DNA of 63,047 bases, the filler included, from Sphacelaria rigidula (lineage: Eukaryota): the NCBI GenBank assembly GCA_964200075.2. It is 11 parts of 11 records of this genome, joined end to end, with 100 filler letters (N's around TTAATTAATTAA, not from the genome) between each part and the next. Parts side by side here need not be neighbours in the genome. Positions count along the whole stretch, not along the records: positions 40,188 to 45,827 come from CAXNAA020025642.1; 10 more parts are not named here. The stretch is one strand, 5' to 3'. Made by a program: the position numbers and the translations under genes. The notes below the pieces were generated by a model that was given only the letters and a program-made list of their open reading frames with translations, had not been told where the DNA came from and made no database searches. Positions 1 through 50,267 of the stretch are shown piece by piece. Each line of letters begins with the position of its first letter. The first letter of the stretch is position 1.

Positions 1-3000
1 GGTTGCCCACTTGAGCCTCATCTCAGAGTTAAACTTCAATTCGCACAATTTACTGTTATGTGTCTGCCCGAAGGGACAGGCACGACAATGCACCCGCCGA
101 ACGTGCAGTAGGTGCTGCGCGTTTGAAACCACGATGCAGGGCAGATGCTCGCACTGTGAAAGCCGAGAAACATGTGTCTGCCCGAAGGGATAGGCGCGAT
201 AGTGGACCCGCTGAACGTGCAGTCAGTAGGGCGCGTCTTAAACCACGATGCAGGGCAGCTGTTTCCATTGTGAGGAGCGGGAACGAGACACAGCACGTGT
301 CTGGCAAAGAGGGTAGGCATGAGGGCGCGCCGGCCGATAGTTCCACGGCAAGCATTGGTATGGATGCTGCTGGTATTGCTGCTGGAGAGGGAGAATATGT
401 CACGCAGCTCGAGCAGACTGCAGGCAGCTTAGCAGCCGCTGTTGCCGTTCAGGAGTGCGCTGAGCAGGAGGTGGTGGCTGAAGCGGGAATATTTGATCCA
501 GCCGCTGCTGCTGCTGCTGTTGGAAGCGTGAAGCCAATTTGCTCCGATGAGCTAGCGCTGAGCGGCAAAGGTCCAGGTTGCTTGTGGCTGCCGGACCAGA
601 GCGTGATTGGGGACACACCTTGCATGCTCACCGCTGCAAGGGGGTGTTATCTTTGTGATGAGGGTGAGCAGAGCAAGCTTCGGGCTTGCGATGCCCAGGG
701 TGAATCTATCTGCGCCAGTGAAATGGTGAGAGATTGTTCAGATGATTCGTAGAGGTGTCTGCTGGAAGGACAGGTGGATACCGGGTTGACGGAATTGCCG
801 CCGGAGCAGCGCGTAGCTGTGGACACGCCTTGCATAATCGAAACAACAGGGGCGTGTGACCCGCGTGAAGCGGGAAGGCAGCGCGAGCTGCAAGCTCGTG
901 ATGCTGTTAGCGATCACAATTCTGACGGTGACGACGAGCGTCGCGTGGTGTTGGGGTGGTCGTGTGCACTGCTGTGTACATGGACAGCTTTGGCGTATTT
1001 GGCGGCGATGGCGGAGGTGTCTCCACTGTTTCGCCGCGGGGTGTTTTAGGAGGATAGTGTGCCATCAGGAGGTGTTGCTGTTCGGGACTGTGTAGCTGTT
1101 CCCGTTTCGCCTCTGGTTTCCTCTATGAAACTGACTGAAGCACAGGTATTCAGTACTGCCCAAGTTTGTGTGGAGGCAAATGATCTGTTGCATTGGTTCG
1201 GCGGTGCGAATATACCTTTTAGAGGCGTGCTGAGCTACATCATGGGGGTGCCAGGTGTAGCTAGACTGAAGGTGCAAGGACGGAGTGTCCGAGAGGAAAG
1301 GCTACTCTACGCTGTGCACTGGGTTGTGGTTCGGGTGCAGCTGTTTCTCAGGAGCGGGCTGGAGGACCACAAAGAAGGCATTACCTGAGGTTTTTGCTGC
1401 TGTGGTGAGCGCCGAGTTGGGTGCTGATGTTGAAAAGCAAGTGCTGAGATGATTGAGTGCTTGTTGAGAATGGGGAAACACATTATGACTGGTATTCGCG
1501 AATCGTTTTGAGAATGGTTGCAGCTTGTTATCGTGTGTTTTGTGGTTATGTTAGAGCATGAAACATCATTGTTGAGCGAGTATGATCGTATCGCGTGTGC
1601 AGGGTCGAAGCCTGGCGTACACGTAGATATTTAGGATGTGTGGGTTGTGCTGATGTGGTTGGCACGGACGATGCATGGTGTTTGCTGCGAGGACGGTGGC
1701 ATTGCATGTGCTGAGTGAAATTTTGGCATGCATGTGCGAGTTTTCATATGCTGAGTGGAAATTTGGCAGGCATGTGCAAATTTTTGCTCGAATGGTACTG
1801 ATATGAATGGTATCTGGTGACGACCTAGGGTTGGGCAGTTTTCGATATACTGCTGTACGCTAAATGAAGAGAAGATCGTATAATCTTGTTCGCGCAGGAA
1901 CACAGTCGAATCATATTTGTGCGGTTTGCACGTACTGAGTGCAGGATATATGGGCTGTTGCTGTTAGCGCGAACATGAGCAGAAACTACGAAATGCGCAG
2001 GCTCGTCCTGACTGTAGGGATGGGTGACACCTACTGTTAGCGTGAACATGAGCTGAAAGGTACGAAATGCGTAGGCTTGTCGTATGTGAGCAGGTATGAC
2101 GCGAGTGCTTCCGGTGGTTGAAGATAAAGACATTATGCGCGCATGCATCAATGATCTTTGACCGTGGCACGTTTTTGTATGGATTGTCACGTGTTTGAAC
2201 CGCACGTGGTTGTTTTTTTGTTCATGTAGAAGGAGCACGTGGATGATGCGTCCATTTGTTCAAAGAACTGGTGCGGGTGGACTGCAAGAGTGTCGAGGAA
2301 TTCATTATTTCTACATTTTGGCTGATGCACGGATGGGATACGACGGTCCAAGATCCAAACGAGATATAGAGTTGTCTGGGATTTGCTTGAAAATAAGAGT
2401 TCGAGAACGAGATCACGAGGGGTGATCAATGATGGCGGAGGACGAGGTCCGTTCGCCCTCGTTGTATTAGTATGCATGACTTGAATAGTGGTTTGAGTCA
2501 TGGCTTTCCTTCGATTGTTTGAATATAATGATGGCAAGTTGAAGCATCGAAGCTTTGATGGCGGGGAGGCATGCGATGCATACGTTTTATACGGTGTTGC
2601 AGAAGCAAGAGGCCACGTGCGTTCTGGACGTGTTGGGTGCTGATTTCCTTCTTGCGTGAGGATGATGTATCATTGGGCCGTTGCACTCCGTTGCGCAGGT
2701 GTTGAACGTACAAAGAGTGCATTTTGTATGTTCGGAAGAACCTTGTCTCGGATGAGAGGGATGATGAGTCACGAGTGTTCTGGAGTTTGACGTTTGCTGA
2801 CATTTCCGGTTTCGTGCCGATGAAGAGTTCAGAGACTTGTTTTGGGCGCAGATTTGAGAATTCGGCGCTAGCTATCGGTTTGTTACTCGAAGTGGTGCAA
2901 GTAGCGTGACTGCATGTGCATGATGGACAATGTTTTGTTGGAATCTCTTGCGAGTTGTTCGGAAGCGGGGCAAGCTTGTATAGAGCTGTTGTTGGAAGCA

Positions 3001-3117
3001 GCGGAAGAGATTGCTATTCTTGGCGGAAAACGACGGTACTTTGAGGCACCAATGATGTCTGAGTTTGTCAAGCTCTGGATGTAACCACTCGCTGGTAGTA
3101 GAGAGCTTTGGGGGTGC
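1..3117 (+). mobile_element. Heavily degenerate Ty3/gypsy internal region (family A), probably non-autonomous
   Basis: Weak pol-like remnants in order: DILLYA (~1844, RT-like), GIHYFYI (~2297, cf. integrase VIHFDYL), RFRADEE (~2807, cf. integrase C-terminal RFYAD). Ends in a PPT-like GAGAGCTTTGGGGGTGC directly before the LTR at 3118. Many stops and frameshifts. Confidence 0.6.
60..340 (+). repeat. Degenerate tandem repeat, ~114-123 bp unit, ~2.4 copies
   Basis: GTGTCTGCCCGAAGGGA...GAACGTGCAGT...AAACCACGATGCAGGGCAG starts at 60 and 174; a third diverged start at ~297. Confidence 0.8.
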
Positions 3118-3378
3118 TGTAGACTGTAGCCACCTTTGTTACCTAAGGTCAGGGACATTGTAGGTGGAGTTGCGGGTCTGATTGCCGGACTCTGTGATGG
3201 TGACCTCCATGACAAGTAGGCTTGATTTTGCCACTCTGGTGGAGAGAGGCTATGGTCCTGTTCTCCTGTACTATGCTGAGGGTTAATACATAAATAACTA
3301 AAGCTGCTGAAGTCCATGTGCCCGTGATGGGAGGAGTCCATATTATGACAATCTGATCTTGAGTGACAAAAGTCTACA
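3118..3378 (+). mobile_element. 3' LTR of gypsy family A (261 bp)
   Basis: TGTAGACT...AGTCTACA perfect 8-bp terminal inverted repeat, preceded by PPT. Homologous copies at 4964-5220 (-) and 49066-49323 (+). Confidence 0.9.
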
Positions 3379-4301
3379 TAGCAAGATTGAAACGCGGACC
3401 GTCTCTCGCATGAGGAAAAACGGCAGCAGCGGCGGCAGCAGCAGCAGTATCAGCACCAGCTGATTCGGACCCACCCCCAACCGTACACATTTACCGGCCA
3501 ATAAGATACTGCTGTTGCTGCTGTTGCTGCTGCTACTACTGCTGCTGCTTCTTGTGCGGGAGGCGATCCACGTTTCGACGAGCGACAGTACCCATGCACC
3601 TGGCGCGTTATTTCCTCCTCCCCACTTGAAATCGATCATGACCTGTTTGCGTGTTGTTACCCTCATATTGTATCAGTATACAGTAGCATTTCAGTACGAG
3701 TACATATCACTTGTTTCCCCCTGTATTGGACGCTGGCTTCATTCTTTCAACGCCATCACCAGCGGCAGCCACGCGTGCGAGATACACCCGATGTGCACAG
3801 CTCGCACAGAGAGATGCGCACAGCTGTATCTTCTAGCACTTTGCCTTGTGAAGAAGCATTGACTTATCAGCAGGCAGTACAGACCAGCGCTTTCCGGCAT
3901 GGTGGCTATCACGCGCAAGGTGCGTGGGCGTTGTAGCACGATTGAAACGCGGACGGTCTCTCGTATGGGGAAAAACGGCAGCAGCAGCGGCAGCAGCAGC
4001 AGTATCGGCACAGGCTGATTCAGACCCACCCCCAGCCGTGCACATTTACTGGCAATAAAGATACTGCTGTTGCTGCTGTTGCTGCTGTTGCTGCTGTTGC
4101 TGCTGTTGCTGCTGTTGTTGCTGTTGTTGCTGTTGCTGCAGGTGCTACTGCTGCTTCTCGTGCGGGGGGCGGTCCGCGTTTCGACGAGCGACAGTATCCA
4201 TGCACCTGGCGCGTTATTTTCCCCTCCCGACTTGAAATCGATCATGACCTGTTTGCGTGTTGTTACCCTCATATTATACCAGTATACAGTAGCATTTCAG
4301 T
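3379..4301 (+). repeat. Direct repeat (3379-3695 and 3934-4301) containing CAG and CTG/TTG microsatellites
   Basis: GATTGAAACGCGGAC...GACTTGAAATCGATCATGACCTG...CAGTAGCATTTCAGT occurs twice, starts 555 bp apart. The poly-Leu/poly-Ser ORFs here are microsatellite artefacts. Confidence 0.9.
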
Positions 4302-4499: not shown

Positions 4500-5595
4500 A
4501 AAAACGAAGTCGCCTCCCACTCACAGGAACAACAACTCTCTCCTTACACCAAGACGCGCTTGGCCACCAAATGACAATGGCCACAGCGCCTCTTCCTCAC
4601 GCAAGTTTCACTGCGTGTTTGAAGTCCTTAGACTCCTCTTCCTGACCGCACCTGGCCAAGCGTGGAACAAGCAACTCTCGCTGACCCCACCAGGCAATAA
4701 TTTCGCCGCTTTTCTGGAACGTGCACGGGCTCGCCAGCTGTTGGTCAACCCCCCGCACCTCTCGCACGAGCGATACCACAGCCCACCCTAGCACTGCCTC
4801 AGAACCTCCTCGGCTCTACTTCTTCAACTCCTCACGACGGTAAGCCGCCTTGAGCTGGACTTGTTTGCTGCAAATTGATCAGGCCTGCCGACTTCCCTAT
4901 CTTGCAGTGTCAGCTACTTTTTAGCGGACCTATCGCTAGTCAGCGGACTTAATGAACGTTCATTGCAGACTTCTGTCACTCAAGATCAGATTGCCATCTG
5001 GACTCCTCCCATCACGGGCACATGGACTTCAGCAGCTTTAGTTATTCATATATTTACCTTCAGCATAGTACAAGAGAACAGGACCAAGGCCTCTCTCCAC
5101 CAGAGTAGCGAAACCGGCTCTACTCGTCATGGAGGTCACCATCACAGAGTCCGGCAATCAGACCCGCAACTCCACTTACAGTATCCCTGACCTTAGGTAA
5201 GAATGGTGGCTAGGTCTACAGCACCCCCAAAACTTTCTACTACCAACAAGTAGTTACATCAGAGCTTGACAAACTCAGACATTATTGGTGCCTGATAGTA
5301 CCGTCGTTTTCCGCAAAGAATAGCAATCTCTTCCGATGCTTCCGACAAGAGCTCCATACAAGCTTGCCCCACTTCCGAACAACTCGCAAGAGATTCCAAG
5401 AAAATATCGTCCACCATGAACATGCAATCACGCTAATTGCACCACTTCGAGTTACAAAGCGATAGCTAGCGCCAAATTCTCAAATCTTCGCCCAAAACAA
5501 GTCTCTTGACTCTTCATCGGCACGAAACCGGAAATGTCAGCAAACGTCGAACTCCAGAACATTCGTGACTCATCGTCCCTCTCATCCGAGGCAGA
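4500..5595 (-). mobile_element. Second gypsy family A segment: 3' internal + PPT + LTR (4964-5220) + 5' internal
   Basis: 5221-5595 is the reverse complement of ~2745-3117; 4964-5220 matches the LTR; 4850-4963 matches 49324-49438. Left boundary is approximate. Confidence 0.85.
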
Positions 5596-5641
5596 CACTT
5601 TCTACGATAGCCTCCCCCCCAAAAGTGCATGGTTTTGGGAG

Positions 5642-5741
5642 NNNNNNNNNNNNNNNNNNNNNNNNNNNNNNNNNNNNNNNNNNNNTTAATTAATTAANNN
5701 NNNNNNNNNNNNNNNNNNNNNNNNNNNNNNNNNNNNNNNNN
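5642..5741. other. Artificial contig linker
   Basis: N44-TTAATTAATTAA-N44, stops in all six frames. Confidence 0.99.
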
Positions 5742-5989: not shown

Positions 5990-6900
5990 ATATTGACGTG
6001 ACTAGAATAGTAACACACTATTATAAGGAAAACAAACGAGAATAATTATAATAATCACGACCACAATCATGAGAGAGAGTGAAACTAATAAAACAGGAAA
6101 TTACCGGCTCCTGCCGCATGGCTTCAGGTCCTCGCAACCCGAAACACATAAAACGACGCAGAAAAGCCCAAAGAAGGATGAGAGTTACAGAAATGGAAAA
6201 GTAACACATAAAAATAACAGTGGACAATTATGAAATAGATGAATAGAAAACCCCTAAGTGAAGAAAACAAATTGTAGTGATCAACGTATTAAAAACAAAA
6301 CGTGTCGTGTCAGACATATTAGTAGTTCAAAGTATTGAACAATGATGGAACAATAAAACGAAAAATGAGAACATTATCACAATACTGTGGTACGAAATAT
6401 CTGCAACAAAAATATGAGTAATAATACACAAGCATTGGCTGGGCCCTGCCGCATGACTGCACGTAATCGCAACCCGAAACACGGGAAACGAAACAGGAAA
6501 GCGCAGGGAAAAATGAGAAATGTAGAAACAATAAACACTGAAATGGTTACAATAATCATCGGTAGGTGAAAATCATAATTGTGGAAACAAAAATCATCAA
6601 ATAAAAAATGAAAATTGGAAAAAAAAGAGACTGGGAATCACAGCGATGAACACATCCGAATTTGCAGTAATTAAACTCATGAAATAATGGTGAAATATTT
6701 TAGTGAAACAAAAGTAGAACTAAGAGTATGATTATAACACAGTAGCAATAAATAGTTGAAACAGAGAATACAAATAATCGTGAAAATAACAAAATGTAAT
6801 TAATAATAAGACAAGAACTGGGAGACTCCTGTCGCATGGCTGCTGGTATTCCCAGCTCAAGACCCAGAAAGCGAAACAGAAAAGCGCAGAGAGACTCCAA
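5990..6900 (+). repeat. Degenerate A-rich tandem repeat, ~335-385 bp spacing, 3 cores
   Basis: Core CCTGCCGCATG...GAAACA...AAAGC at ~6110, ~6445 and ~6828. Confidence 0.65.
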
Positions 6901-8717
6901 TGTCCAGAACACGTTGGTAACTCACGGTTGATGGAGTGAATACGCGCATGAAAAGATAACAGAACAGGAAGCGATCAGCCTCGGCGATTCGTTCGGAGCA
7001 AGATAGCTCCCTGAGCGCACGCTATACCGTATGAAAAAACAAGCATTGTACTGACCGCCGTCGTTGCCATCACTAGCAACCATTACTCCACTGAATAGAT
7101 AGATACATCTCCGATTTTCTCCCCCATACTTCGAATAAGTCATACACTCACCGCCTGCCGCTCGAGGAAGTAGCCTCCGGCGGAGCCGAAGTGTAGCCAT
7201 GAGACAAGCACGGCCAATCTCTTCAGAACTATACGGCCGTCCTGCAACGGTCTTTTTCGAAGGCCGTCACGAGGAAGCGGTGGATAGAACAGGACAAACC
7301 ATGTTCGACGTCGATCGGAACACGGCTTGGCATATATTCTGGTGTGGAGTTCCTTCAATTTCTCCTCTTCTGCCAACGTCGTCATGTGGAACTCCGTGAT
7401 ATACTCAAGCCTTGGAACTCCGTGATATGTTTAAGCCTTGGAATCAGGCCGTGTCATGAGTTTGAGTCACGTGATACTGCCCAGAAATGGGGAATCATCG
7501 TGCCAGGTGTTCACACATTTGATCGACCCTTCTCCTGATTCGGTACCGCACTTCAGCCTGCCCCTGCTGTTGGTTTCAACATCTGCGCCATCCTTCCCTC
7601 CGAATGTGTGGGCCAGGTCACGCACAGCGGCCTTGTGCGTCGGGCGAAGCTATCTAGCACTCATGGTCGTCACTCTCCCATCCTTGAAGGCGTTCAGCAT
7701 CCCGACGGAAGGATCTCGCATAGAGCAGAAATCACTTATCAGCGAACGCGGGGACACACGACGAGCCGACTCGCATCGTCGTCGTCGTCGCCATCATCAC
7801 TCTCATCGCGGGCGTCACAGTCGCCTGGTTGGCAGCGGTTCACCGGGAATATCATTGCTTGGAGTGCGAACGCCAGGGCACACAGGCGGCTCCACCGGGC
7901 CGAAAGAGGAACACGCCGAGGAGATTTCCTCAGCTCCCTCGGCTATCCAAGGTGGACTGTTCAAGTCTACCTCGTATCAGGGGACGTCGAGATCGTTCCC
8001 TGCTTCGCCATACGGCGTGTCGGGGGCCGTAGACAGCATGCCACCCTCGGAGTGGACGTCGTCGACGACTCCCACGGAAGACAGTCCCCACACGGAGCTG
8101 GGCGACCTCGATTTGGAGCATGTCGTGCGAGAAAATGCGAACTGATCATCACGCGGGAGGCAGAGCGGCAAGTAGGCAGAGAATGCCGCGTGGAAGATTG
8201 AAATGAGGTGTGGCTTCATTTGAGGTACATGCGGCAGAGCAGCAGTCGGCAGCAGAAAATCAAACGAGCGTGCATGCGCCTGTGTTTTCTCTTTGTCCTG
8301 ATTTCGTTCTTGCTCCAAGTTTATACATAATCGTAACACTGGTGGTGCTGTGTTGTGTGCAGCCTAACGCAGTTGGCTAATTTTTGGCGTCATCAAATCT
8401 CGTCTTGTGTATCTCCCGTACGAGCGTACTTCTCGTTGTGTAGTCTGCATATCGTGCGAGTGTACGACCGCCAGTGATTGATGACGGAACACTTGAAAAA
8501 AAGCGATGCCTATGACGAATAAATTTCGGCACCAGTCACCCAGTAGCTGCGAGTACCCAGTACGATATCCAGTTTCTGGGAGGCGTTTTCAGTACGCGGC
8601 CAGTCGTGAAATACCGGCGGGTCCCCCTTGGTGTCCACCCGTTACTACAGTGCTAGGGTACCGAGTACTTTTATTATCGCTAGTGAATGTATATGTGATG
8701 TTTGCATGCCCTTTGCG

Positions 8718-8795
8718 TGATTGATTGATTGATTGTCGCACTTTAACTGACCCCCCAGGGGTCCAGCCGTGGTCTCATGATAGACATACCCAACA
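8718..8795 (-). repeat. LINE/SINE-type 3' terminus with stem-loop and (CAAT)n tail
   Basis: Minus strand TATCATGAGACCACGGCTGGACCCCTGGGGGGTCAGTTAAAGTGCGACAATCAATCAATCAA. Related termini at ~13850-13940, 22215-22300, 29470-29575, 31365-31460, 31460-31520(-), 60115-60175. Confidence 0.7.
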
Positions 8796-9791
8796 AAACG
8801 AAACTGAGACACGCTCTGAAGAAAAGAAGGAACAGAAAAAAAAAAGAGTAAAACAGAACGACATAGCAGTCTAAGTCGTAACAAAAAAGTAATAAAAAAG
8901 TAATAAAAAAGTAATAAAAAAGTAATAAAAAAAGTCAACACAAGCAAAGCAAGAAAGAAATGGCCGACCTAAAACAAAAGAAAAGGAAAAGAAGAGGAAA
9001 GTGTAGAGCAGATAAAATAAAATTGTGTACAGTTTTCATATCATTTTTTTGTTGATGGTGGGTTCCATCCTTTTCATTTTTTCTGTTCATTGTTCCTCAG
9101 TGCTATCATATATTAGGAGGACACCTGCTATGATGCGAAAAACGAAAGCTCGGGCAGTGACCTTTTCCCGACAACTATTCTCGACGAAAACAGCTCTCGA
9201 AGATACGCCACTGCTGCGCATCTCAAGCGCGCCTTCATCATTTCTCAATTACTACACCTTCTAGTGAACGCTGACGAAGAAGGAGTGGAACTGAACTTGA
9301 CCAGCTGCATTTGACGGGACCTCAAACAATCGGTAAGGACATGACACAGTGATTCACGCCCTGTCCGTTGGTGGTCCCTTTTCGCACTCACGGAAAATGT
9401 GGGCAGCACGGGCGGGTACCCGGTATTCGGTGTTTCGGATATTTTCCCTGTGCATACCGGGGTTTTCATACTTGGTGCTGCACCAGCAAGTACCCAGACG
9501 AACTACCCGGCAATTGCTTTCAAAACCACGCCTCCATTTTCCAGTAGCCCGTTCTTTTCTTTGTCACCCAGAATCACCTCTCATTGGGGATGAACACCAA
9601 GCACACGACCAGCGATCCAAGAAAATCATTCACGACATCTTTGTGTTACTGGGGGAGATCGTAGTATAGGCAACAATAATGCAGCGAGGATACGGAGCCA
9701 TAACTATTCCTGCCTTCATTTCCTGGTGCCGACTGTTGTGCTACCTACCTCACTCACCTCGAATGGAGCCATAACTCACCTCACCCACATA

Positions 9792-10010
9792 CCGTAATTG
9801 TACGAGTCATTGCACACCCCCTGGACTGAATTTCAAAGCTCGATTACTCCACAACAAGAAGAGCATCAGTGCTAAAAAGGGTGGCTTTGGAAAGATCTAG
9901 TCGATAGCTGTCCGAAAACGCGACGTTTGGTATTGGCACCCTCTTCGTCATGGAGTAATCGAGTTTTGAAATTCGGTCCAGGGGGTGTGAAATGACTCGC
10001 ACAATTACGG
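9792..10010. mobile_element. Tc1/mariner-type MITE, 219 bp, TA TSD
   Basis: ~60-bp TIRs CCGTAATTGTACGAGTCATTGCACACCCCCTGGAC... / ...GTCCAGGGGGTGTGAAATGACTCGCACAATTACGG; TA at 9790-9791 and 10011-10012. Confidence 0.9.
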
Positions 10011-10126
10011 TATTTGTCGCAAAAACTGTATGCCCATTTCAATATTTCCTCCCACGTGGCATCCTATGCATACTTGCGGCTTTGCTGACCACATGATGAC
10101 CATACGACGACCACGTGATGCCGATG

Positions 10127-10127
<1 letters not shown>

Positions 10128-10176
<49 letters not shown>

Positions 10177-10202
10177 TGTAGCAGTAGAAGTAGTAGTAGT
10201 GA

Positions 10203-10233
<31 letters not shown>

Positions 10234-10262
10234 CGTAGTAGTAGTCGTAGTCGTGGTAGTAC
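10128..10262 (+). repeat. (TAG)n microsatellite
   Basis: Imperfect AGT repeat of ~45 units. Confidence 0.95.
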
Positions 10263-11382
10263 TAGTGTTACGGGCAAATGGCTGCTAGCTTGGTCCCTAC
10301 AAAAACGCTGTGGAAACGCGACTTCAGGAGAACGACAGATAACACAGCATGCGGCGCGAATTCATGCGAGCAAGCAATCACCCGTGTGATAGTTCGTTTC
10401 ACAGCTACACCATACAGTAGTGGGCGGTCTAACTATTCAGGGGTGTTCTGGGGTTTTCTTCGCGTACTACTCTTCGATAGAACTCGAAATTGCTAGCGTC
10501 GGTAGATTTTTGTACAATAAACAGTATCACCCTCGAAACACAGTGCCTAAGTCAGTGTTGGTTGGCGTTATCGGGCGATACGAGCAAATACCTCGTTTAT
10601 CAGGAGGGTGTGGTTGACCGTAAAAGACAGTTTTTCGGCTCTAGTGCAATGATTGGGTAGAACTTCAAAAAAATAAAACTGTACATTCCTTGACAAATAT
10701 GATCGGGACAGGCTCAATCGACCGAAAATATCGAAGAGTAAGAATCTGGGCTGAAACGTGGCAGGATCCCCGATGACCGGTCAGCCCGTCAGCCATTCAA
10801 TATTGAGTATAAATGATATATTTTTCTTCGAATGTGAAGCGGATACAACTATCTTCAGATCTCCAATGTGATGAGCGGTGGCAAGCGAAAAGAGCCCAAG
10901 AAAATCGCCAATTACGAAGAAATCACAAAATGCCACAAAACGAATAGTTACACCGCCCACTACTATATATCAAATTAGTCAGGCTAGATCTCACCGGTAT
11001 CCAGCAACAGGGAAATTGAATCCAAGAGGAAGAACAGCTCAACGTCATGGTGTCTTCAGCACAGCTTTCAAGGCGTCATATTCTTTCTTTATAATTGGTG
11101 GCGTTGGGAACCAAAACGAGCTTCACGAGTTATCATCGCAGATACTTCGATCAGTTCGGAGATTGATTATTATAAACACCATGGGGCTCAATGGTTCAAT
11201 TAGGTTGCTCTCGGAACAGAATCGAACTATGAGTGAAAGGAGGCATGTCTGTGAAGGTCGTAACCGGTACAAGCAAGCCTCCACCCCCTGATCAGGCTAC
11301 TCGCCGGCAGCCACTGACCAGCCCTCCGGGTTCACTAGTCGAATAGCTAGCCCATCCTCGTACTGAACTTCCACCACTACGC

Positions 11383-11482
11383 NNNNNNNNNNNNNNNNNN
11401 NNNNNNNNNNNNNNNNNNNNNNNNNNTTAATTAATTAANNNNNNNNNNNNNNNNNNNNNNNNNNNNNNNNNNNNNNNNNNNN
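11383..11482. other. Artificial contig linker
   Basis: N44-TTAATTAATTAA-N44. Confidence 0.99.
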
Positions 11483-14400
11483 CAACAAAGGAGGACGCCC
11501 CCCCCCCTCACCCCCGTCAGTCCGGCCCGGCGAAAACCTGGCGTGCTCCGTCCCGGCTTTGTAGGGACGGACCCCCGATGGGGTTGGCGTCGGTTGGCGA
11601 TGATGCTGTAAAACACGCCACTCACTGCGTAGGCTAGGCAACCAGGTTAGCGAATTTGTTTTGCGCGCTCACGTTTCTTTTGCGGTAACCATGATGGTGG
11701 TGGAGCTACACCATTTTGTGCGGGGTGGGAGAACCTCACTTCCGGGCAATGGGGATGGTCATCCCACGTAGTGTTTGAATGGCGAGACACCCATGAGGCA
11801 GTGCGTAAGCCGTGGCTATCTATGAAAGTGGCGATACCGAAAAATGAAGCAACTTATTCGAGGCTGCCATCCAAATGCGAGATAATGAGTACGCTTCGGG
11901 AAAAAAAATCTTAGCAGGATGCAGCTCACCCTTTTTTCAGGAGTTGGACCAACTTCTATGGCGACACAAATCTTGATCCGTATGCAGATCGGAGGATCTG
12001 AGATTCACCTTTAGCGGACCCCAATATGGCCCAAATCGGGAGACCTCAGATCTGGGACTTTTTTTTTCGCCCCATTTCTCTAATCTGCGATACAGGTCGG
12101 GGAAATATTGACGCCCCCCCAATCTGTAGGAAGGTGACGTACATACAGTAACGTACGAAGAAAGGGCAAGATGCATTTGATCATTTTGAAGCTGCAGCAG
12201 CATAGTGTCTCGTGACAGCACAGACCGTGCCTACCCGCGCCAGCTGCTGGAACAGCTTCGTAGCAGGGGTAGCGCGCACGGGGTTTGGCAAGTGGATAAG
12301 AAGTGTTGACGCCGTACCCTGCAGCGATGGTAATATACTGCATTGCACTGCCATACATATCACCGTAACGAACGGGGCTGTACCACCCTACTGTCTGTTG
12401 TCGTTGTACTTGCAGGGTGATGTACGGCACTGCATTCGCATTACACTGTTCTCGCGCACTGCTCTCGCAATACTGACTGCGCCATAATGTATTATCGCAC
12501 GGCATTATCGTGTACGGTGATTGTGGAGTGTACCGCACTTTATTACCCTGGGACACCGCGGTACGACACTGTACTTGAAGGATGATTCATTGCCTGCCTG
12601 TCCTTCGTCTTCACTAGTGAGCGATACCACAACCCTGCGGAGAACTACCCTCTGTTTACAGAACCATTTCAACAAATCTGTGAACCCATAATGGCCCCCC
12701 GGCAAATTTGATCTTCGCAAGAATGAATCACTCCGATTTTTCACAGATTCGGGTCTCTGCAGAGTCGGTACTCGTCCCCATAAGACTAGTCCCCAAAACT
12801 GAAAGATTGACACCACTTTTGTATCATCAATATGCGGCAAGTAGCGGAAGCAACCAAAAAAACTACAACAGAAAGTTGGAGCGATTTGAACTTCACGAAA
12901 AAAAAAGAAAATATCATAACTGGATGAAAACAAAAAAAAACGATGGGTGCTTCCTTGAAGATTTTTCAACTTGCGTGCAGAACGCCCTCGTAATATCTCG
13001 GCTCAACGCTCCTTATTTTGGGCAGGATATTACACTTTTTGTGACGCCGCTGCTTCCATTCATCTAACTGGTATATGAGACGTCCACAAGGCCGGAATGT
13101 CACGAGTTCGAAAACCGGAAGATCCTTTTTTTTTGTCGAACAGAACCTGATTCCGTCGTTGAGGTAATATATTATGCAGCATATTTTCTCTTCGTTTTTT
13201 TAAGCGGCAGAGCGTGCATGACCAGCTTGGCCTGCAGTTCACAGCGATATAGTCACTGTATATGGGGCTGGTTCGGAAAACTGACAAAATCATCGCGTGT
13301 AGGAAGAATGCGGGTATTATGGCTGGCTCAGCCCGTACTCGACCTTTATCTCTGCACAAAACTCAACAAGATTGCATTGTTTGAGATATGTGTGTTCATG
13401 GGCTTCATTTCGCCTCGTTAGCTCGCTACAGCCCGGGAGAGTAGTAGAGCTCGACGAAGATGAAACGTGCTAAGCATCGTTTTTTTCAAAAGCACCAAGC
13501 AAGCGTGGATGTATGCCTTCAAAAGTGACGTACAAATACCACGACAGAGAAGGAGGCCACAATGCACGGAGTCGCACGCACAAGAGAGATACAGACAGAG
13601 AGAGAGAGGGATAATTGTCTTGCCGTGTGCTTTTGTGTGTTGACTGTTACTTGGTTGCCTTTCCCATTTTACCTCATATCTTGTTTTCTCTTCTTTTGTG
13701 TTTTTATTTTAACTAGTTCTTCTTCGTTCCCCTCCTTCCCGTTTCTACTTAGTTTTGGTTTTGGTTCCCTTTTCTGTGTTAAGTCGAGTCCGTATGTTCC
13801 GTCTTCTTTTTTTGTTCTCCTTTGCTTTTCGTTGGCGAGCGTTTCAGTTTTGTTCACCTTGCGTACGTCTATCTTATGAATAATGACCATTGCTGGGTCT
13901 GTCCGGGATCAGTTAATGTGCGTCACTCCATCAAATCAGCCAAGCCCTCTGTCATGGTCCGTCCTGTACACTGGGTGTACCGCAAGATACGTCAGCCCTA
14001 GCAAGCCAGTAGGCACTACATGCACTCTCTGCTCGGCGCTGATCAACGCGAGCCATCCAGAACTACATCACGGCAACCGGCTGTAGCAGCCCAGCTGTGC
14101 AAAACGAAATGGGAGTCAGCATTGGGACGGGTACGGTCTTTTCTGCCGGGTTACGTTCCGTCTTGGCTGCATGACAGCACACGACGACGATGATGATATA
14201 GCGGTATTGTCTCTGGCCCCTTCTGCAAAGCTGCATCACCCGAATGGAGACGAATGCCAACCCTGGCCAGCACAATCCCACGGCGAGTACATGATGCTCG
14301 AAGCAAATATTGAGTACACCACCCCGCGCACTAGTGGCGGGGGGGGGAGGGAGGGCGGGGGGGGGGCGTACCCATTTGATGCTTGCCTTAGTCGCTTGCC

Positions 14401-39222: not shown

Positions 39223-40087
39223 CTAGTCGTGAGTGCTGACTCGATCCTTCTGTTCAAGGTTTTCGAATTTTGAGCAGCCTCCCAAAATGTAGTGTAATGC
39301 TTCACCGCAGTTGCTAATGGGAATTTTAAAATCTCCGAGATCTACGTAGGAATCACCCGAAAAGACGGTTGGCGCTCCTTTTCTTACTGCCTCTACGGGA
39401 GAGAACAGATGTCTCCCAAGACCTGGAACTATCACGGCAGGAAGTTTAACAGAGCGCTTGATTCCTTCAGAATCAGTAACGATGGTGTTGATAACACCTC
39501 TTCCCGTACATTGTAGGAGATGGCGTCCAGCAGTAAGAATGCTCATTGGTGGGTCGAGCTTCACGTAATCAACCATCTCACGTTCGATATTCGGCAATAG
39601 CTGATTATCCAAAAAATGCCCGCTGGAGCCACTGTCAACTGCCATCTTGAAGAAAATCTCGTTGGGTGTACAATGATTGGCAGTGACATGCGAACCTGAA
39701 AGAAGGGAAACCCCGATACCGTTTGACGGTTGACATGAGTCAAGCACAGTTTCGGCCGAAGGTGTCGAAATATGTTGGCCTTGGTCATTCGATGGTACTG
39801 TCGCGGAAGCTGGATCAGCGATGGCAGTGTTGGCTTGGCGTTGATGACCATCGAAGTTGTTGCTGTTGCCATTGCTATTGTTGTTGCTGCAGTTGTTGTT
39901 GCTGTTGTTGTCGTCGTCGCGGTTGTTGTGGTTGCGTTGGCTTCTATAGTCCGAGTCGTTGTGTTTGTCTGTATGGTGAAAACTGCACCATTTGACAGAC
40001 CTGTCCTGGTGGTTTGACTGCCCACTAGAACGGCAGTCACGGGCGTGGTGACCTCTTCTTCCGCACGAGAAGCATTTTCCGCGAAAT
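39223..40087 (-). mobile_element. Ty1/copia remnant: gag C-terminus + aspartic protease
   Basis: ORF 39223-39747 has MAVDSGSSGHF...GRGVI...VIVPGLGRHLFS (copia protease pattern DSG / G-x-G / vPgL..nLfS). An upstream frame reads WCSFHHTNKHNDSD (degenerate Zn-knuckle-like). No integrase or RT follows. Confidence 0.75.
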
Positions 40088-40187: not shown

Positions 40188-40462
40188 GTTTGGACAAATG
40201 GTCTAAGCAACTACGATTTGGTCAAAACCCTGCTTGTGCCTCGCTGATTTTGTCTTCCTCTTCTAGCATCGTTCCTACTCTACCTTTCAGAATCTTACAG
40301 AATGTTTTCCCTACCGTGCTCAGTAGCGTTATCCCTCTATGAGATCCTGGATCAGCCTTGTCTCCTTATTTGAAAATGGTTGACGACTGCTCCTTCTCTC
40401 CACCTTTTAGGTGTGTATTCATTTCTCCGGATCCAGTTGTGCAGCATAACCATCATAACAAC
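40188..40462 (-). pseudogene. Non-LTR retrotransposon (LINE) reverse transcriptase fragment
   Basis: Manual translation: LHNWIRRNEYTPKRWREGAVVN / FK*GDKADPGSHRGITLLSTVGKTFCKILKGRVGTMLEEEDKISEAQAGF*PNRSCLDH. These are LINE RT N-terminal motifs (KKGD, RxITLL, QAGFR) with two stops and a frameshift. Confidence 0.85.
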
Positions 40463-40726
40463 CTGGATTCGTTATTGAGGTTCAACATTTTTGTGAGGTT
40501 CAACTGACCATCGTTTTCACAACACTTTTTCCGGAGAGGTTTTGAATTACGAAAGCGCTTGCGGTCGTGAGGGTGTATGGAAAAGTTGTTGCGAATCCCC
40601 CGGGTGTCGATGAAAACGCCGCCGGAGGAGCAACGGCAGAAAGGAGCCTCGTCGCTCGCGTCCCTTGTGTGACCCCTCCGCCGACGTCCATTGCAAGTCA
40701 CCCGGTCACCCCATCACTGGCAATCA

Positions 40727-41015
40727 TGTGAGCAATAAATATCGTTTTTTACGCGTGTAGTGTAGAGTAGTGCACCTACAGTATACATGCAACATGTAGA
40801 TATGTGGTGGGTCCCGGATTGATTGTTTGGAGGATGACTATTGAATGCGTAACATAATATCGTGTTCGTGAGGAAAATCCATGAAGCTTACTTCTGGTTA
40901 ACGAAGACTGCTGTTTCTAACACTGCTTGAAGTCTTGAAGTCTCTGGAGGCCTGGACAGGGAGGAAGCCTCTGGAGCAGCACTGTAACCTTGTTCTGATT
41001 TCAGGCAGGTTCACA
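40727..41015 (+). mobile_element. 5' LTR of family B (~289 bp)
   Basis: TGTGAGC...GTTCACA terminal IR upstream of gag. No second LTR is available, so the left end is inferred. Confidence 0.6.
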
Positions 41016-41191
41016 ATAAACGTTTATTTAGGAAACTTGTCGTTTCTGGATTGGGTTCTGGACGTCGCACCCGACTGTTTGTAGAACGTGAGGATGCTCA
41101 CGTTGAACAGCAGGGGGGGAGAAGCGGCGTAGAGAGAGGCGCAGGCCACACGAACCCAAGGCGGCTGCGGTGATAAGAGGCTGTTGGAAGG

Positions 41192-42193
41192 ATGGCAGCG
41201 CGAAGGGAAGGGGGCACCAGCGAGACGGTTGATGAGGTGAAGTTTGCAGTAACCGAATTGACCTTGGGTGGATCCTTGAAAGTGCCCGAATATGGGCGAG
41301 AATTCAGTGAGCAAGCTTCCAGACGCTTTTACCAAAGGTATTGCGAATATGAGGAGGCAGTGGGGAAGAGTAACAAAGGTCGGTCTATTAAGTGCGCACT
41401 CTTGACCATGCAAGAGTTGGTGCCAAAGCATATCCAGAACTGCGTGTCTGATATCATCTTTGACGGGTTGCCACTCGACGAAGACGAATGCAGCAAGGGA
41501 TTGCACGCCATGCCAAATGCTGGATCGATATGGAACTTGATCCTCGCGAAGCTGCAGCAGGCGTAAAAAAAGGCCCTTGCCGCACGGTCTGAACCAACTG
41601 CGATGGGTCAAGTAGAAGGGCAATGGAGTTCATTACAGGAGTACTTTGCGGAAAACGCAGGTGCGTAGTGCGTTTCCTTGAATCTGACCGTACGTTCAAG
41701 GCTGGTCCAGCACATATCATTACCAGAGCTATGGTCGCCGGCCTGACCCCACGTGAGTTCAAGAATAAAAGTTCAAAATATATTTTATATGAAAAGGGAC
41801 AGGAAAGAGAGCCCGAGAGTGGTTTATGAGGTAGCTCATGACTTGGCGGGAAAATGGAAAACTGTTGAGGAGGTTGACAAACACCGCCGACAGCAACCGC
41901 AGCTTAGGGAAAAAAGCGGCTCACAAGGCTCAAAACAATTTACATCGCATGCCGGCGCAGCGGCTGCGGCCGCCGCAGCAGGTAGTGGCGGCGCAGGTAG
42001 TGGCGGTAAGAGCTCGAAAAAGCCCCACAAACCTGGTCCGAGCTATGCAGGTTGTTTTGAGAGTGGCGATAAGGGCCACTACAAGAAGGACTGTAATAAA
42101 CAGAGCACACCTGCGGCCGCGGTGAGTGCGTCAGGTGGGCAAGCAAAGTCGTCGTCGCCGCTGCCGCTGCCGCAGCAGCAGCAGCAGCAGTAG
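41192..42193 (+). pseudogene. gag: gag, broken into three ORFs
   Basis: ORFs 41192-41566, 41623-41829 and 41753-42193; degenerate Zn knuckle CFESGDKGHYKKDC. Similar to the gag at 48561-49811 (PEYGREFSEQ vs PDYGEVWAEE; GLTPREFK vs GISPPEFK). Confidence 0.8.
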
Positions 42194-42900: not shown

Positions 42901-42976
42901 ATTGAGATTGAGGCGCCACAGGATCCAGGTGGACAAGAGGAGCCTGTGGATCCCTCCGTTGAGCGATTGATGTCGC

Positions 42977-45827
42977 GTGGTTCCGAGATGGACATGTCCA
43001 GAGGAGGAGCCGGCAGAGCGTCGTGTTGCACTGGATCATACAGTACAGGCGGCTGCGGACAAGGGTATGTCGGCGAGCGGCGTTGATAAGCTTCGGGAGG
43101 TTGTTGGGCGCCGTGTCAGCGCTTTTTGGCGGTCACTGCGCGGTGATCCGCCTGCTCGAGTAGAGCCCTTGAAGGTGAGATTCAAACCTGGGGCTAGGGC
43201 AGTCAAGGCGAGCCCGCGGGTGTATTCCCCTGTAAAGGGAACGTGGTTAGCAGGGTGTATGGCGACACTGGTGGCGCTTGAGCTAGTATTTCGCAGCTTA
43301 CAGGCGGTGTGGGCGAGTGCGGCCATGGCGACGCCGAAGAAGTGCGGTTATCGAATGGCGAGTGGTTATCGCGCGGTAAACAAGCAGATTGAAAAGGTTC
43401 CGAATGTTATGCCTACCCACGAGGCGGAGATGATCGACCTGCTGGGCGCTGCGTGTTTTGGAAAGATTGATATGCTGCAGGGGTACTGGCAGATGCCGTT
43501 GGCGGCTGATGCACAAGAATTATTCACGATCGCTTCTCCCGAAGGTCTGTTTACCCCCACACTGGTGCCGCAAGGGGTGTTGAATGCGACGGGGTACTTC
43601 CAAGGCATCATGACAGGATTATTGACCGGACTTCAGTGCAAAGTATGGGTGGATGATATCTTGTGGTGGGGTAAAGATGAGGATGATCTCTTGTGTACAC
43701 TTGACGAGATTTTGGGCCGTGTGGAGGATGCTGGTCTTTTTGCGGCTGCGCACAAGTGCATGTTCTACGACACACAGACCACGTGGTGGGGAAAGGTCTT
43801 TTCAGGTGGTCAAGTGGCTCATGACCGCGAGAGACTGAGCGGGCTGGCCAATCTTAGGCGCCCGCGTATAGCAGGCGAGCTTATGCAGTTCCTGCAGGCG
43901 GTAAACTGGCTGAGAACGTCCCTGCCGCGTCTGGCGGAGGTGGTGGAGCCGCTGCGGGCATTACTGGAGGAACACATGCAGGAGAATGTGCGCCGTACCA
44001 AGCGAGTGGCGTCAAACCGGACAATCGAGGAGTCGGCATGTACGTTCAGGTGTGCTCAGGTGTGGCACGAGGCGCAAGATTTGGTGGCGCATGCCGTCGC
44101 TTTGTCATATCCCAAGCAGGGGTATGAGGTTCTCATGTTTCCAGACGCATCGGATCTACACTGCGGCAGTTTTCTTACGCAGGTGCCGGAGGATGAGCTG
44201 GGTGATATATTGGCGGTGGAAGACATGAGCCATGAGCCGATGGGGTTTCTCAGCGGAACGTTTCGTGGAGCGCAGGTTCGGTGGGCTACGGTGGACAAGG
44301 AAGGCTATGCAGTCGTAAGTATTTTTCGTAGGTTGGAGTATCTTCTCTGGGGTGGGGTACATATCTTTACCGATCATCGTAACCTAGCATACATTTTTAA
44401 CCCTGAGGCGTGCGTTGCATCCGTGCCTAAGACTGCTGCCCAGAGGCTCGAGCAATGGAAGGCTGTGCTCGGGCAGTACGATTACTCCATCAGGCACATT
44501 GCTGGTGAGCGCAACTACTGGGGAGGTTTATTATCAAGGTGTGTAAACGTTCCGGCGGTGTCTGTGCGTGCTGCGGCCGTGTTTGCGAGCGGCCAGCCTG
44601 ATGAAACGCTGCCGTCGAAGAACGCAATTCGTGAGGCCCAAGAGCAGGCTCAGGCCGGGTTTGGAGTGATGGATGCTGGAGCCCCTACTTTTGCAGCAGC
44701 TGTTGGGCGAGTTTCAAAAGACGGTGAGGGTTTGTTTCGCGTGCATGTAGCAGGGCGGAATGTGTTGTGGATCCCGCCGCAAGCAAAAGAGCTGCAAACA
44801 CGCTTGATGATGTGTGCTCACATGAAGGAGGCGGGTCATCGGGGTGTTGTGGCGACACTGCAGCGGCTGCAAGAGTATTGCTGTTGGTTTCAGATGGAAG
44901 CTCATGTGTCGGATTTTGTGAGGAAATGCTTGCATTGTGCGGACTCGAAAGCGGGTGAGATGGTCCCGCGGCCACTAGGAGAGACAGTGCATGGCACACG
45001 GCCCGATGAGGTGATTCATTTTGATTATCTGTACGTTGGCGAAAGTGGCCCGCTGGGCGAGAGCGGCCTGGATGAAGGCGACGGGTGCAAGTACATATTT
45101 TTAATGATGGATGATCTGTGCAATTTCGCGTGGTTTGAGCCCACCGAGTCTTGTACAGCTGCAGCGACTGTGCAGCATCTGCTGGCGTGGTGCAAGGCGT
45201 TAGGTCCGCCGGAGGTCTGGGTTAGTGACACCGCATCGCATTTTAAGAACCATGTGATGCGAGCACTGGAGAAGGCGCTGAAGCTGGACCGGAAGTTCGC
45301 GGTTCCAAACTCGCCGTGGTCAAATAGTACGTGTGGAAGGATGATGCGAGAGGTTGTCCGTACCTTGAAGGCCATGCTGCAAGAAGAGAGGCGCGACGTT
45401 CGTGACTAGGTGGGACTGGTGCCTGCCGTACAGTGGGCATTGAACACGGCATTCCGCGAGCGCTACGCCAGTACGCCATACCATGCGATGTTTGGACGGA
45501 CGCCGCGCACAAGTTTTTCAACCCTGGCATCGTCGACCGGCGGCGAGTGGCGACTTGATCTGCTGGATGAGGACATGCTGCGGGAGAAGGTGGCATCGGT
45601 CGTGGAGGCGCAGCAAGCGTTGCACAAGGAGGTGGCGCAGCGTGTTGAGAAGACTCGTGAACTGCAACGACTTGTAGCTAGTAAGGGACAGTTGCCAAAT
45701 TTCATGGTGGGTGACTATGTGTTGGCTGCGAGGGTTAGGCGCTCAGGTACAACGCCAAAACTCGTAAGTACGTGGACAGGACCGTGGAGGATCGTGGCAG
45801 CGGAGCATCAACATGTGTACGAGATTC
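42977..45827 (+). CDS. pol: pol: RT-RNase H-integrase (810-aa ORF plus in-frame continuation after TAG at 45407)
   Basis: KIDMLQGYWQM, PQGVLNA, WVDD; RNase H FPDAS, DKEGYA, FTDHRNL; integrase H-H-CC (CAHMKEAGH...CLHC), HFDYLY, VSDTASHF; C-terminal GDYVL...WTGPWRI. Confidence 0.95.
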
Positions 45828-46835: not shown

Positions 46836-49065
46836 AGCAATAAATACTCTACTCAAACTTTGAGCACGTCTGCTTCAAGGGTCAAATAGCCTCTTGTTAT
46901 ACTACAATCCAAAGTGTCGTGTAACAATTCAACAGGCCCCCGTTAGGGCGGTTCGGATAAACTTTCTCGCTCTCATTTGGATCTTCAACTCTCAATACCA
47001 CGAAAACATTGTTGGCAACAGAACGAACAGGTACGGTAGGAATCTTCACCATGCGAGACAATAAATCTCCCCAAAAAATGCGCTCTCCAGGAATGTGTAC
47101 ACTGACATACTGATGTTGTTGTTGGGCTGCCAGCACCTCCTGCATGTCTTCTTGGCTTGGCTTCACTCCCGGAGACTGTTCCACTTGCGCGTTCACCGCC
47201 TGGTAGTCGCTGACCAAATGGACTGTGTCCCTTTTCGGCGCTGCCTTCGCCGGACTCGCCCACACAGCCTGGATGTTCCTAACCAACAAACCAAACGTCA
47301 CCAAAGCTGCGATGCATGAAGCAAGCCACACGGTCTTCACTTGATCGCAGCGGCGAGGCTTGACCTTCACAGCCTCCTTCATTGGCTCCACGCGCGCTGG
47401 CGGATCACTACGCAGCGCACGACGAAATATATCTGCGCGACGAGCCAAATCATCGCGCAGACAATGTGCGCCATCGGCGCTCAGGCCCTTCTGCTCGGCT
47501 TGCCGCACACTATCCTCAAGCGCACGTTCTCGTGCATCTCTCTCCTCCACAGGGTCAATGAACATGTCCGGCCCCCGATCGACCAAGCTCTCCACCGCTT
47601 CATCAGCAGGAGTCTCCTCCTCATTTGCGCTCTGAAATGACCGTATGGATACGATCACACGCCTTGCAGCAAGGTAACTGGGGTTTTCCACGCCGGTTTG
47701 CACCGGCACAGCACGCGGACGTAACTTATCTAACGCCAGCGGATACGGATCGATCCCGAGCTCCTTCATCGTCGCCATCCCTAAGAGAATCACGTTGTCC
47801 CTACCGGGTGTGATAGCGATAGTAATGGGTTGGAACTCCACAGACCCCCACGGCGTACGCACGCTAACAATAAACGGCACCGTTTTGTGTGTTACCGTGA
47901 CGGGAGCACCCATCGCGGTCTGCGCCGTTTGCGGTCCGTTTTCGAACGGAATCGGAAGCTACGCGCCGCCAGACTGCGAAGACATTTGCTCTAACAATCC
48001 CACACCGATCTACGTGAGCGCGGACCCAGAATCCAGAATAACGCGGGCCATGAACAAACCTACAGAACCAGGCAAGGTTAAATCTGCGCGTAGGCATTCA
48101 GCCTTGCGATCGACAGGTACCACGCCTGCCGAAGAACCCTCTTCTGTCCTAAGAGTCACCTGACGCCAGGGCTGCCCTTCAACACTTGCCATCGATAGCT
48201 GCGAATCGCCGGCCCAATCAGACAAAGTCGCCGGATATTCAGACGACGCTGTTACAGCCGTCGCAGCAGTAGGGAATGCACCAGACACGGATCCTGCCCG
48301 GCCAAGGGGTTGCGAGTTATTCGCTCCAGCACTCCCCACCGAAGTATTTGCATTTCCCACGTACACTGTCCGCCCCGCTACGGACGAACTATAAGATCCG
48401 GAGTCACCACCTGATAACGTAGTGGAAGAACAGCAGCGGAGGAATCATCATCCGCCGCCGATCGCTTGCTACCGCGGCCGCTGCGCCCGCGTCCCTGATT
48501 GGCACGGTCCCGTCCACCGTGACGACCGCCCCGAGATCCTGGTGAATCTCGCGCATTGCCTTATGCAGCGCCTTGAGCGCGAGGCTTGGGGCAGTCCTTG
48601 ATCACATGTCCGGTGCCGCCGCAGTTGTAACACGCGCGAGTGGACGACGCTCGCGAAGACCGCTGCTGTTTCTGTTGCTGTTGCTCTTTGCGGCGCGTAC
48701 CACCTGCACTTTTTTCAGAATCGCGCCGGCCATGTGCATCAATGAACTTCCACTGGTCGGCCGCCTCAAATAATTGTTTGAACACCACCGTCGGGTTTTT
48801 GTTCCGGCCGTCAACATACGTTAGTACCCTCCTGACATACGCCTTGAATTCCGGGGGAGAAATCCCGTCCATCAAAGCTATGGAAACCGACTCGGCGGGG
48901 CCTGGCAACCAACTCCTGTCCCCCGCACGGTACATGGCTTGCACCATGAGGTTTTCTCCAAAACCCGTTCCATATCTGAACTGACCATCATAGCACGATT
49001 CCTGACAGATTTTCCTCCTGCTTTGCTTCATCGTACGTACTCTACGCAGGTCTGCTGCAGCCCGC

Positions 49066-49490
49066 TGTAGACTCTAGTCACCATTGCTACCTAAGGTTAG
49101 GGACATTGTAGGTAGAGTTGCGGGTCTGATTGCCGGACTCTGTGATGGTGACCTCCATGACGAGTAGAGCTGGCTTTGCCAAACTGGTGGAGAGAGGTTA
49201 TGGTCCTGTTCTCCTGTACTATGCTGATGCTTAATACATAGATAACTAAAGCTGCTGAAGTCCATGTGCCCGTGATGGGAGGAGTCTACATAGCAATCTG
49301 ATCTTGAGTGACAGAAGTCTACAATGAACGTTCATTAAGTCCGCTGACTAGCGGTGGGTCCGCTGAAAAGCAGCTGACACTTCAAGATAGGGAAGTCTGC
49401 AGGCTTGATCAGTTTGCAGCAAACAAGACCAGCTCAAGACGTGTTAACATGGCGAGTAGTCTAGTTGGGGCTGTCTCTTAAATCGTCACA
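49066..49490 (+). mobile_element. Family A-derived insertion nested in family C gag, 4-bp TSD CCGC
   Basis: LTR 49066-49323 (TGTAGACT...AGTCTACA) + 5' internal to 49438 + 52 bp ending GTCACA; CCGC at 49062-49065 and 49491-49494. Confidence 0.85.
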
Positions 49491-50009
49491 CCGCGCAGTG
49501 TCATGCTATCCACCGGTTGTAGTGTACCCGGCACGCTGCCTCACAGCATCAAGCAATTCATCTGGGGTCATAGCTTGACCGTCCTTGTACATGTCTTCGA
49601 AGCACCAGTGAATATAGGGGGGAATAAGTTGCCCTATGCTCACTCTATTATGCCGTATAATTCCTTGTCCATTAGCGAGACTCAAACGCCGTATATGATC
49701 AAGATATGCCGAGAAAAAAACGCCTGATACCTCCTCTGCCCATACTTCGCCATAATCTGGCGGCTGTAGTGGCTCATCTAACACCAGCGCCGCTGCCGCC
49801 GCTTGAGCCATGTCGTCTATGCTTCAAAAACTTCACGGAGAAACTCTTGCCTGACTTTTGCGTCCTCCAGCTCACGGAGCGTTCGCCTTTGCTGTACGCT
49901 TTCAGTTGGTCTCCTCCTGTTTGCGGGCTAAATTGGCTCTAAGCTGGAGCCCACTTCTCCTCAGCCACAACTCCTCTGACAGAGTGCCGGAAGAATAATA
50001 TCGAAATAT

Positions 50010-50267
50010 TGTAGCCTCTGCCAGACGATCTGGACAAGAGGACTATTCACGAGGGACTCCTCCAGTAGCAGTGGCCTCGTGCTCGAGAAGTCCTTTCTTC
50101 TCACTTGCTATTATCACGGATTGATCCTCAACAGACCACATCAAGAGTCAGACAGCAAGGGGCCACCCAGATGAGGGTCATCAATCCAGGATCCCCTGTC
50201 CCCTGCGACTGCTTAGATCATGCACACGACTATACTGAAACCTACGGCTTGGTATCATTTGGCTACA
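50010..50267 (-). mobile_element. 5' LTR of family C (258 bp)
   Basis: TGTAGCC...GGCTACA perfect 7-bp terminal IR, ~200 bp upstream of the gag ATG. Confidence 0.8.

Follow-up and report, generated by a model that had tools for sequence, protein, structure and literature searches.

The DNA examined here, referred to as the window, is a stretch of 63,047 bases made up of 11 pieces of about 5641 bp, which are joined by N44-TTAATTAATTAA-N44 spacers (one of them at 5642-5741), and any feature running across a spacer is therefore artificial. On the plus strand of the piece that stops at 45827 lies a retroelement that we call family B. The 3′ part of its 5′ LTR, recognised from contig depth, spans 40791-41015 and ends ...GGTTCACA, and at the junction between this LTR and the internal part of the element sits the palindrome AATAAACGTTTATT (41015-41028, plus strand), whose first A we take to be the terminal base of the LTR. 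The palindrome has one exact match in the window, and 0 of 100 shuffled sequences match it. Further downstream are a gag region in two frames with a degenerate zinc knuckle (41177-42193, plus strand), delineated by ORFs and by tblastn matches to the gag part of P0007 and free of Pfam matches, and a pol region encoding reverse transcriptase, RNase H and integrase, which is cut by the end of the piece (42971-45827, plus strand). The Pfam models RVT_1, RT_RNaseH, Integrase_H2C2 and rve match pol in that order, and by this domain order family B is a Ty3/gypsy element. Its pol is 89% identical to P0001, which carries a chromodomain (PF00385); the family B piece itself stops within the integrase tail, where a chromodomain would be sought. 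The closest named relatives of this pol are found in brown algae (Sphacelaria rigidula at 74% identity, and Ectocarpus), followed by oomycetes at about 30-35%.

Families B and C, the latter described below, each lack a second LTR copy because the window consists of joined short pieces, family B being truncated by the piece end at 45827. Paired copies inside the window could thus be used to check an LTR end for family A only, and families B and C were judged on other evidence. For family B, an LTR end at 41015 is supported indirectly, by the metagenome loci L060/L064, where a verified LTR end carries the family B 14-mer, and, more weakly, by a step in summed contig depth (the sequencing runs consist of contigs and not of single reads). 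In run X1 this depth is 16,000-80,000 at 40791-41015 compared with 6,000-12,000 in the internal part of the element, and the fall takes place across 40992-41058, at the proposed LTR end. Contigs of four runs bridge the junction, and among the contig matches listed there is neither a variant within 41015-41028 nor a loose contig end at 41015. The base that follows the palindrome, 41029, is T here and C in most other copies (17,303 of 17,823 in depth, run X1). One contig of the same run joins the 3′ end of the palindrome at 41028 to 41570 on the opposite strand and another returns from 41015 to 40963; these are single contigs, and they may represent either rearranged copies that broke at the palindrome or assembly noise. 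Immediately 5′ of family B, a different repeat of extreme copy number occupies 40188-40522 (depth 1e5 to 2e6 in X1, against thousands for family B), within which many contigs stop at 40340, 40457 and 40513.

Family A provides the direct view of the LTR end. Its LTR copy at 2747-3378 (plus strand), which is either a 3′ or a solo LTR, ends at CA and is followed by unrelated flank, and so fixes the end of the LTR. The copy at 4964-5590 (minus strand) is about 627 bp long, has the form TG...CA, is 90.7% identical to the first and runs directly into the palindrome AATGAACGTTCATT, an exact match at 4951-4964 (minus strand). The same palindrome is found a second time at 49323-49336, next to a truncated plus-strand LTR (49064-49323; 49064-49336 with the palindrome) and before about 100 bp of internal sequence that reaches to 49438. 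When the three copies are aligned the LTR starts with TG(T/C)CTCGG and ends ...GTCT(A/G)CA; the copies at 5590-4964 (minus) and 49064-49323 (plus) continue into ATGAACGTTCATT whereas that at 2747-3378 does not. With three LTR copies, one of them followed by unrelated sequence after its CA, it is clear that the palindrome opens with the A that closes the LTR. The initial annotation had drawn this register from family B, for which the evidence is of the indirect kind given above; it is family A that establishes it. Gypsy coding sequence for family A was found by neither tblastx nor tblastn. Between two family A LTRs in facing orientation, 3379-4301 holds two tandem units of about 555-606 bp with many CAG/CTG runs. 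The sequences just upstream of two family A LTRs (2700-2746, and 5591-5641 on the minus strand) are weakly similar and one includes a G-rich run resembling a polypurine tract, so that the 'upstream' LTR may at the same time be the 3′ LTR of a neighbouring copy arranged in tandem.

In family C, the sequence that follows ...GGCTACA is the imperfect palindrome AATATTTCGATATT (49997-50010, minus strand), at an LTR end that lacks a second copy. This 14-mer can be read as AATATCGATATT with two extra T, and AATATCGATATT itself occurs exactly in L018 and L072; family C is probably a decayed copy. A family C ORF that by eye resembled the gag of family B was dropped when BLASTP returned no alignment, and tblastn and BLASTP gave no gypsy coding match for family C. 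The three 14-mers of the initial annotation were all recovered as exact matches where it had placed them. The window contains 87 inverted repeats of the form 5+4+5, and the four of these that begin with AAT are exactly the four family A, B and C sites. Families A and B do differ by the G-C versus A-T compensatory change. The wider description of a palindrome kept in three gypsy families holds in part: families A and B carry it in full and family C does not, and the gypsy assignment is secured by pol domains for family B but is unproven for A and C, since neither shows gypsy coding sequence.

We asked how far this arrangement extends among relatives of family B. An alignment of its pol retrieved 80 metagenome loci at 22-35% identity, in which 354,713 bases were scanned for perfect palindromes of at least 10 nt whose first A is preceded by AC, with the mirror orientation as a control. 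On the pol strand 54 such ACA palindromes were found, compared with 14 in the mirror orientation. Counted from pol residue 1, two intervals, one 1,300-3,400 nt on the upstream side and the other 2,900-4,300 nt on the downstream side, make up 23% of the bases scanned and hold 45 of the 54, in 38 loci; the mirror control has six there. Among these 45 there are 28 different sequences, 10-16 nt long. The outer bases are AAT...ATT in 16 of the 28, the others being of AAA, AGT and ATT types with a few more, and a few of the 28 are probably secondary matches within LTRs. Because the search asked for perfect palindromes, the perfection of those recovered is in part a product of selection; support that is not circular comes from the mirror control, from the clustering in position and from the cases with LTR pairs. 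Among loci with enough flank, 23 of 32 carry an ACA palindrome and 9 of 32 do not. In a quick tree of the RT-RNase H region (66 rows) palindromes are present in both main branches, and close relatives differ by paired changes, as seen between L070 and L078 and among L026, L020 and L052. In one subclade, composed of L050, L056, L067, L068, L071, L077 and L080 (SH-aLRT 97), only L050 has an ACA palindrome, and four of its members have ample flank yet no ACA palindrome. Self-BLAST at higher sensitivity revealed no LTR pairs among the loci poor in palindromes. These numbers are to be read with the possibility that metagenome contigs are chimeric.

Paired TG...CA LTRs are available in family A, L060/L064 and L010. 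L060 and L064 share an 81-bp LTR, TGTGCC...GATCACA, in three different downstream contexts, and its 5′ copy is followed by ATAAACGTTTATT, the same 14-mer as in family B. The LTR of L010 ends ...GTCACA and then enters ATAACGTTATT, while its 3′ copy enters other sequence; in both L060 and L010 the palindrome begins at the LTR end itself. L008 is a comparable case, with a two-base ambiguity. By these sequence comparisons, a palindrome in the place expected of a tRNA primer site is a clade-wide feature of gypsy-type elements in brown algae and other protists. The element in L060 (157-260) and L064 (601-704) is very compact, and its 81-bp LTR holds a 12-nt palindrome of its own, TTAATTAATTAA; neither locus has a target-site duplication. 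The sister loci L070 (at 6362) and L078 (at 3703) contain perfect AAT...ATT palindromes, of 12 and 14 nt, which follow CTT instead of ACA, reflecting either a different LTR end or a shifted register. L054 was considered as a case of a TGG-type site after a 94-bp repeat, but this is doubtful because an ACA palindrome lies 60 nt further on.

Few features of LTR retroelements are regarded as near-universal, and the primer-binding site (PBS) is one of them. The claim that these elements have no TGG-type PBS held up: there is no TGG within 30 nt of the family A, B or C junctions. The window contains no tRNA gene, an Rfam search of 40600-41400 gave a single chance-level match (E 0.94), and across the window and six loci there were zero matches at Rfam gathering score and nothing tRNA-like or ribozyme-like. 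A search of the LTRs, within which the 5′ end of the element's own transcript would lie, found no exact complement of the junction of at least 7 nt in the family A and B LTRs; at a threshold of at least 6 nt there was none in the whole 81-bp LTR of L060 and one 6-mer, at offset 12, in L010. Nor was there a complementary stretch of at least 6 nt within about 100-120 nt downstream at any of seven junctions. Judged by sequence, then, the palindrome would appear to be neither a tRNA-type nor a Tf1-type site. Pairing with the 3′ end or an internal half of a host tRNA, or priming by the transcript 5′ end as in Tf1, are both established modes, but besides leaving none of these traces they would have to accommodate 28 different perfect palindromes, which no single host RNA can match, and we consider them highly improbable here.

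The initial annotation favoured a local fold-back, in which a hairpin of five base pairs and a 4-nt loop forms within one RNA, is cut after its 3′ arm and primes into U5. The geometry is correct, in that the 3′ arm would end on a base paired with the final nucleotide of U5, and the minimum free energy (MFE) folds of the family A and B regions do hold a small hairpin. The energetics, however, speak against it. Folded in isolation, 21 of 22 palindromes give a hairpin MFE of 0.0 kcal/mol and family A reaches only -0.9 kcal/mol; the 10-nt palindromes of several families could form only a 3-bp stem; and in native context none of the four junction regions folds better than its shuffled sequence (z 0.30, 0.13, -1.10 and -0.33), the palindrome being unpaired in L010 and the hairpin not consistent among elements. 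By comparison, 21 perfect palindromes form full homoduplexes at -4.4 to -19.5 kcal/mol, although the palindromes are AU-rich and some of these duplexes are weak (-4.4 to -6.8 kcal/mol), and family C reaches only -3.7 kcal/mol. The pattern of conservation points the same way. At ACA junctions, stems with true loops of 1-8 nt were counted 18 times, compared with 8 in the mirror control, whereas for perfect palindromes the counts are 45 and 6, and all 28 catalogued versions are self-complementary through the centre, something that a loop does not need; the non-palindromic centre of family C is consistent with a loop. Retention of full self-complementarity, centre included, fits pairing between RNA molecules better than a local hairpin. 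On these predicted energies the hairpin reading is weak, and we regard it as quite unlikely, whereas the RNA dimer that the initial annotation had named as an alternative fits the results. Such a dimer need not prime. The palindrome might be a dimerisation or packaging contact only, with a different RNA priming from the first few bases past U5; palindromes are the usual RNA dimer contacts of retroviruses, one in the PBS of HIV-2 acts in this way in vitro according to the account in PMC5874298, and the outer bases that a separate primer would contact are often alike, being AAT...ATT in more than half of the distinct versions. We nevertheless consider this unlikely, given that no separate primer site was seen, that gag begins 8-24 nt past the palindrome in compact elements (8 nt to the start codon in L060/L064), that the outer triplet varies, and that a primer contact of 3-4 nt would be unusually short. 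A last possibility places the symmetry at the level of DNA, as a site, bordering the LTR, that a dimeric host or element protein would bind, for instance in transcription or silencing control. Perfect even-length palindromes are typical of binding sites for dimeric proteins, and the absence of an RNA folding signal would be expected; yet 28 sequences among close relatives would require repeated changes of specificity, the palindromes keep a strict register to the terminal base of the LTR (54 on the pol strand, 14 in mirror orientation), which points to the start of reverse transcription, and the element would be left without any primer site. This we think very unlikely.

The reading that we prefer, with a probability of about one half, is that the palindrome is the primer-binding site and works through RNA self-complementarity without a host tRNA, most likely by the pairing of two genomic RNAs followed by cleavage. 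How far U5 extends is set, in reverse transcription, by the 3′ end of the minus-strand primer. Given that U5 ends on the base with which the palindrome begins, the primer must pair with the left part of the palindrome, and since the only sequence that would always match across 28 versions is the palindrome itself, self-pairing is proposed. We infer that two co-packaged genomic RNAs would pair PBS to PBS in a duplex of 10-16 bp, and that one strand would then be cut where the palindrome ends on its 3′ side or close by, much as RNase H cuts the RNA duplex of Tf1. The resulting 3′-OH could be extended across the U5 and R of the partner, the 5′ fragment of one RNA taking the role that a tRNA plays elsewhere. 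Trans priming in Tf1 was reportedly described by Haag, Lin and Levin in 2000. We count against dimer priming the well-flanked loci that lack an ACA palindrome, the seven-row subclade that is mostly without one, the weakness of some homoduplexes and the possibly chimeric contigs.

The closest analogue, as far as sequence comparison can tell, belongs to another superfamily and is found in the fungal GalEa elements of the Copia type. These are described in a 2017 report (PMC5445492) as having no tRNA-type PBS and a short conserved 9-mer after the 5′ LTR, CTGATCAGT or CTAATTAGT, which is palindromic once the final A of the LTR is counted and which varies by paired substitutions. Its authors saw no LTR complement of the Tf1 type and could fit the site to no known model. 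The palindrome including the final A of the LTR, termed Conserved Hairpin Site CHSeq1 there, has its counterpart here in family A, L060/L064, L010 and the locus scan. The second GalEa sequence, CHSeq2, is given there as an inverse-complementary 9-mer 12-41 bp downstream, whereas none of the seven junctions here has a downstream partner of at least 6 nt. As described, GalEa also differs in its Copia pol order, its fungal hosts and its 10-nt palindrome, against the gypsy order of family B and the 10-16 nt seen here. In the literature searched, there is no description of a palindromic primer site in a Ty3/gypsy element; the work of Goodwin and Poulter 2001, mentioned below, may bear on priority.

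Other systems share single aspects of the arrangement. In Schizosaccharomyces pombe Tf1, of the Tf1/sushi type, an RNA duplex of about 11 bp at the PBS is cut by RNase H to make the primer, independently of tRNA (as outlined in PMC7175516). There the PBS pairs with the opening 11 nt of the transcript, located in the LTR, whereas the junctions studied here lack such a complement and the PBS is complementary to itself; the common ground is tRNA-independent priming from the element's own RNA, and Tf1 is the likely chemical analogue of the mechanism proposed here. In HIV-2, a palindrome within the PBS mediates RNA dimers in vitro (PMC5874298), so that a PBS-region palindrome pairs two genomic RNAs as we propose, yet in the retroviral case as presented there the PBS stays a tRNA site and the palindrome is its by-product; retroviral DIS palindromes, for their part, are described as lying in hairpin loops away from the PBS, unlike the palindrome here. 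Among Ty3/gypsy elements, Dictyostelium Skipper is reported to have a polypyrimidine stretch as a non-canonical site (PMC5006619) and 'novel mechanisms of priming' were proposed for Cryptococcus Tcn2-5 by Goodwin and Poulter 2001, as cited in PMC7175516. On those accounts both lack TGG and a Tf1-type complement, as do the elements here, though Skipper has a pyrimidine run and not a palindrome, and some of the Skipper and Tcn2-5 elements are chromoviruses.

The observation with which we began is therefore confirmed and extends well beyond three families, and the earlier interpretation is partly supported. A palindrome in place of the tRNA primer site suggests that the RNA of the element primes itself by pairing with a second copy. 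A clade-wide palindrome flush with the LTR end parallels a feature of fungal Copia elements that has gone unexplained, and provides a concrete mechanism that can be put to the test. More speculatively, and with the balance tilted somewhat against it, reverse transcription of LTR elements may have a third general mode of initiation, besides host tRNA and the Tf1 5′ end, in which the PBS is self-complementary, genomes pair, one of them is sacrificed as primer and dimerisation is itself the priming contact, with independent origins in protist and brown-algal Ty3/gypsy elements and in fungal GalEa Copia elements. If this were true, genome dimerisation and priming, which are thought of as separate, would become linked, and the elements would no longer depend on host tRNAs or be exposed to host defences that target primer sites of the tRNA type. 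Hosts are described as repressing PBS sequences by means of tRNA fragments and zinc fingers (PMC7472051, PMC8931336). Annotation of the LTRdigest type looks for tRNA matches, and elements with the palindrome would consequently be called 'PBS-less'.

The window contains traces of other retroelements. At 46897-49073 on the minus strand is a separate gypsy-type gag-pol remnant, which we call element X, with a zf-CCHC Pfam match and tblastn matches to P0002 and P0007; it is 5′-truncated at the start of the family A LTR piece, and its own junction is missing. An ORF at 39223-40087 (minus strand), cut by the end of its piece, encodes a CCHC knuckle followed by a D-S-G protease motif and by eye resembles a gag-protease of the Copia type.
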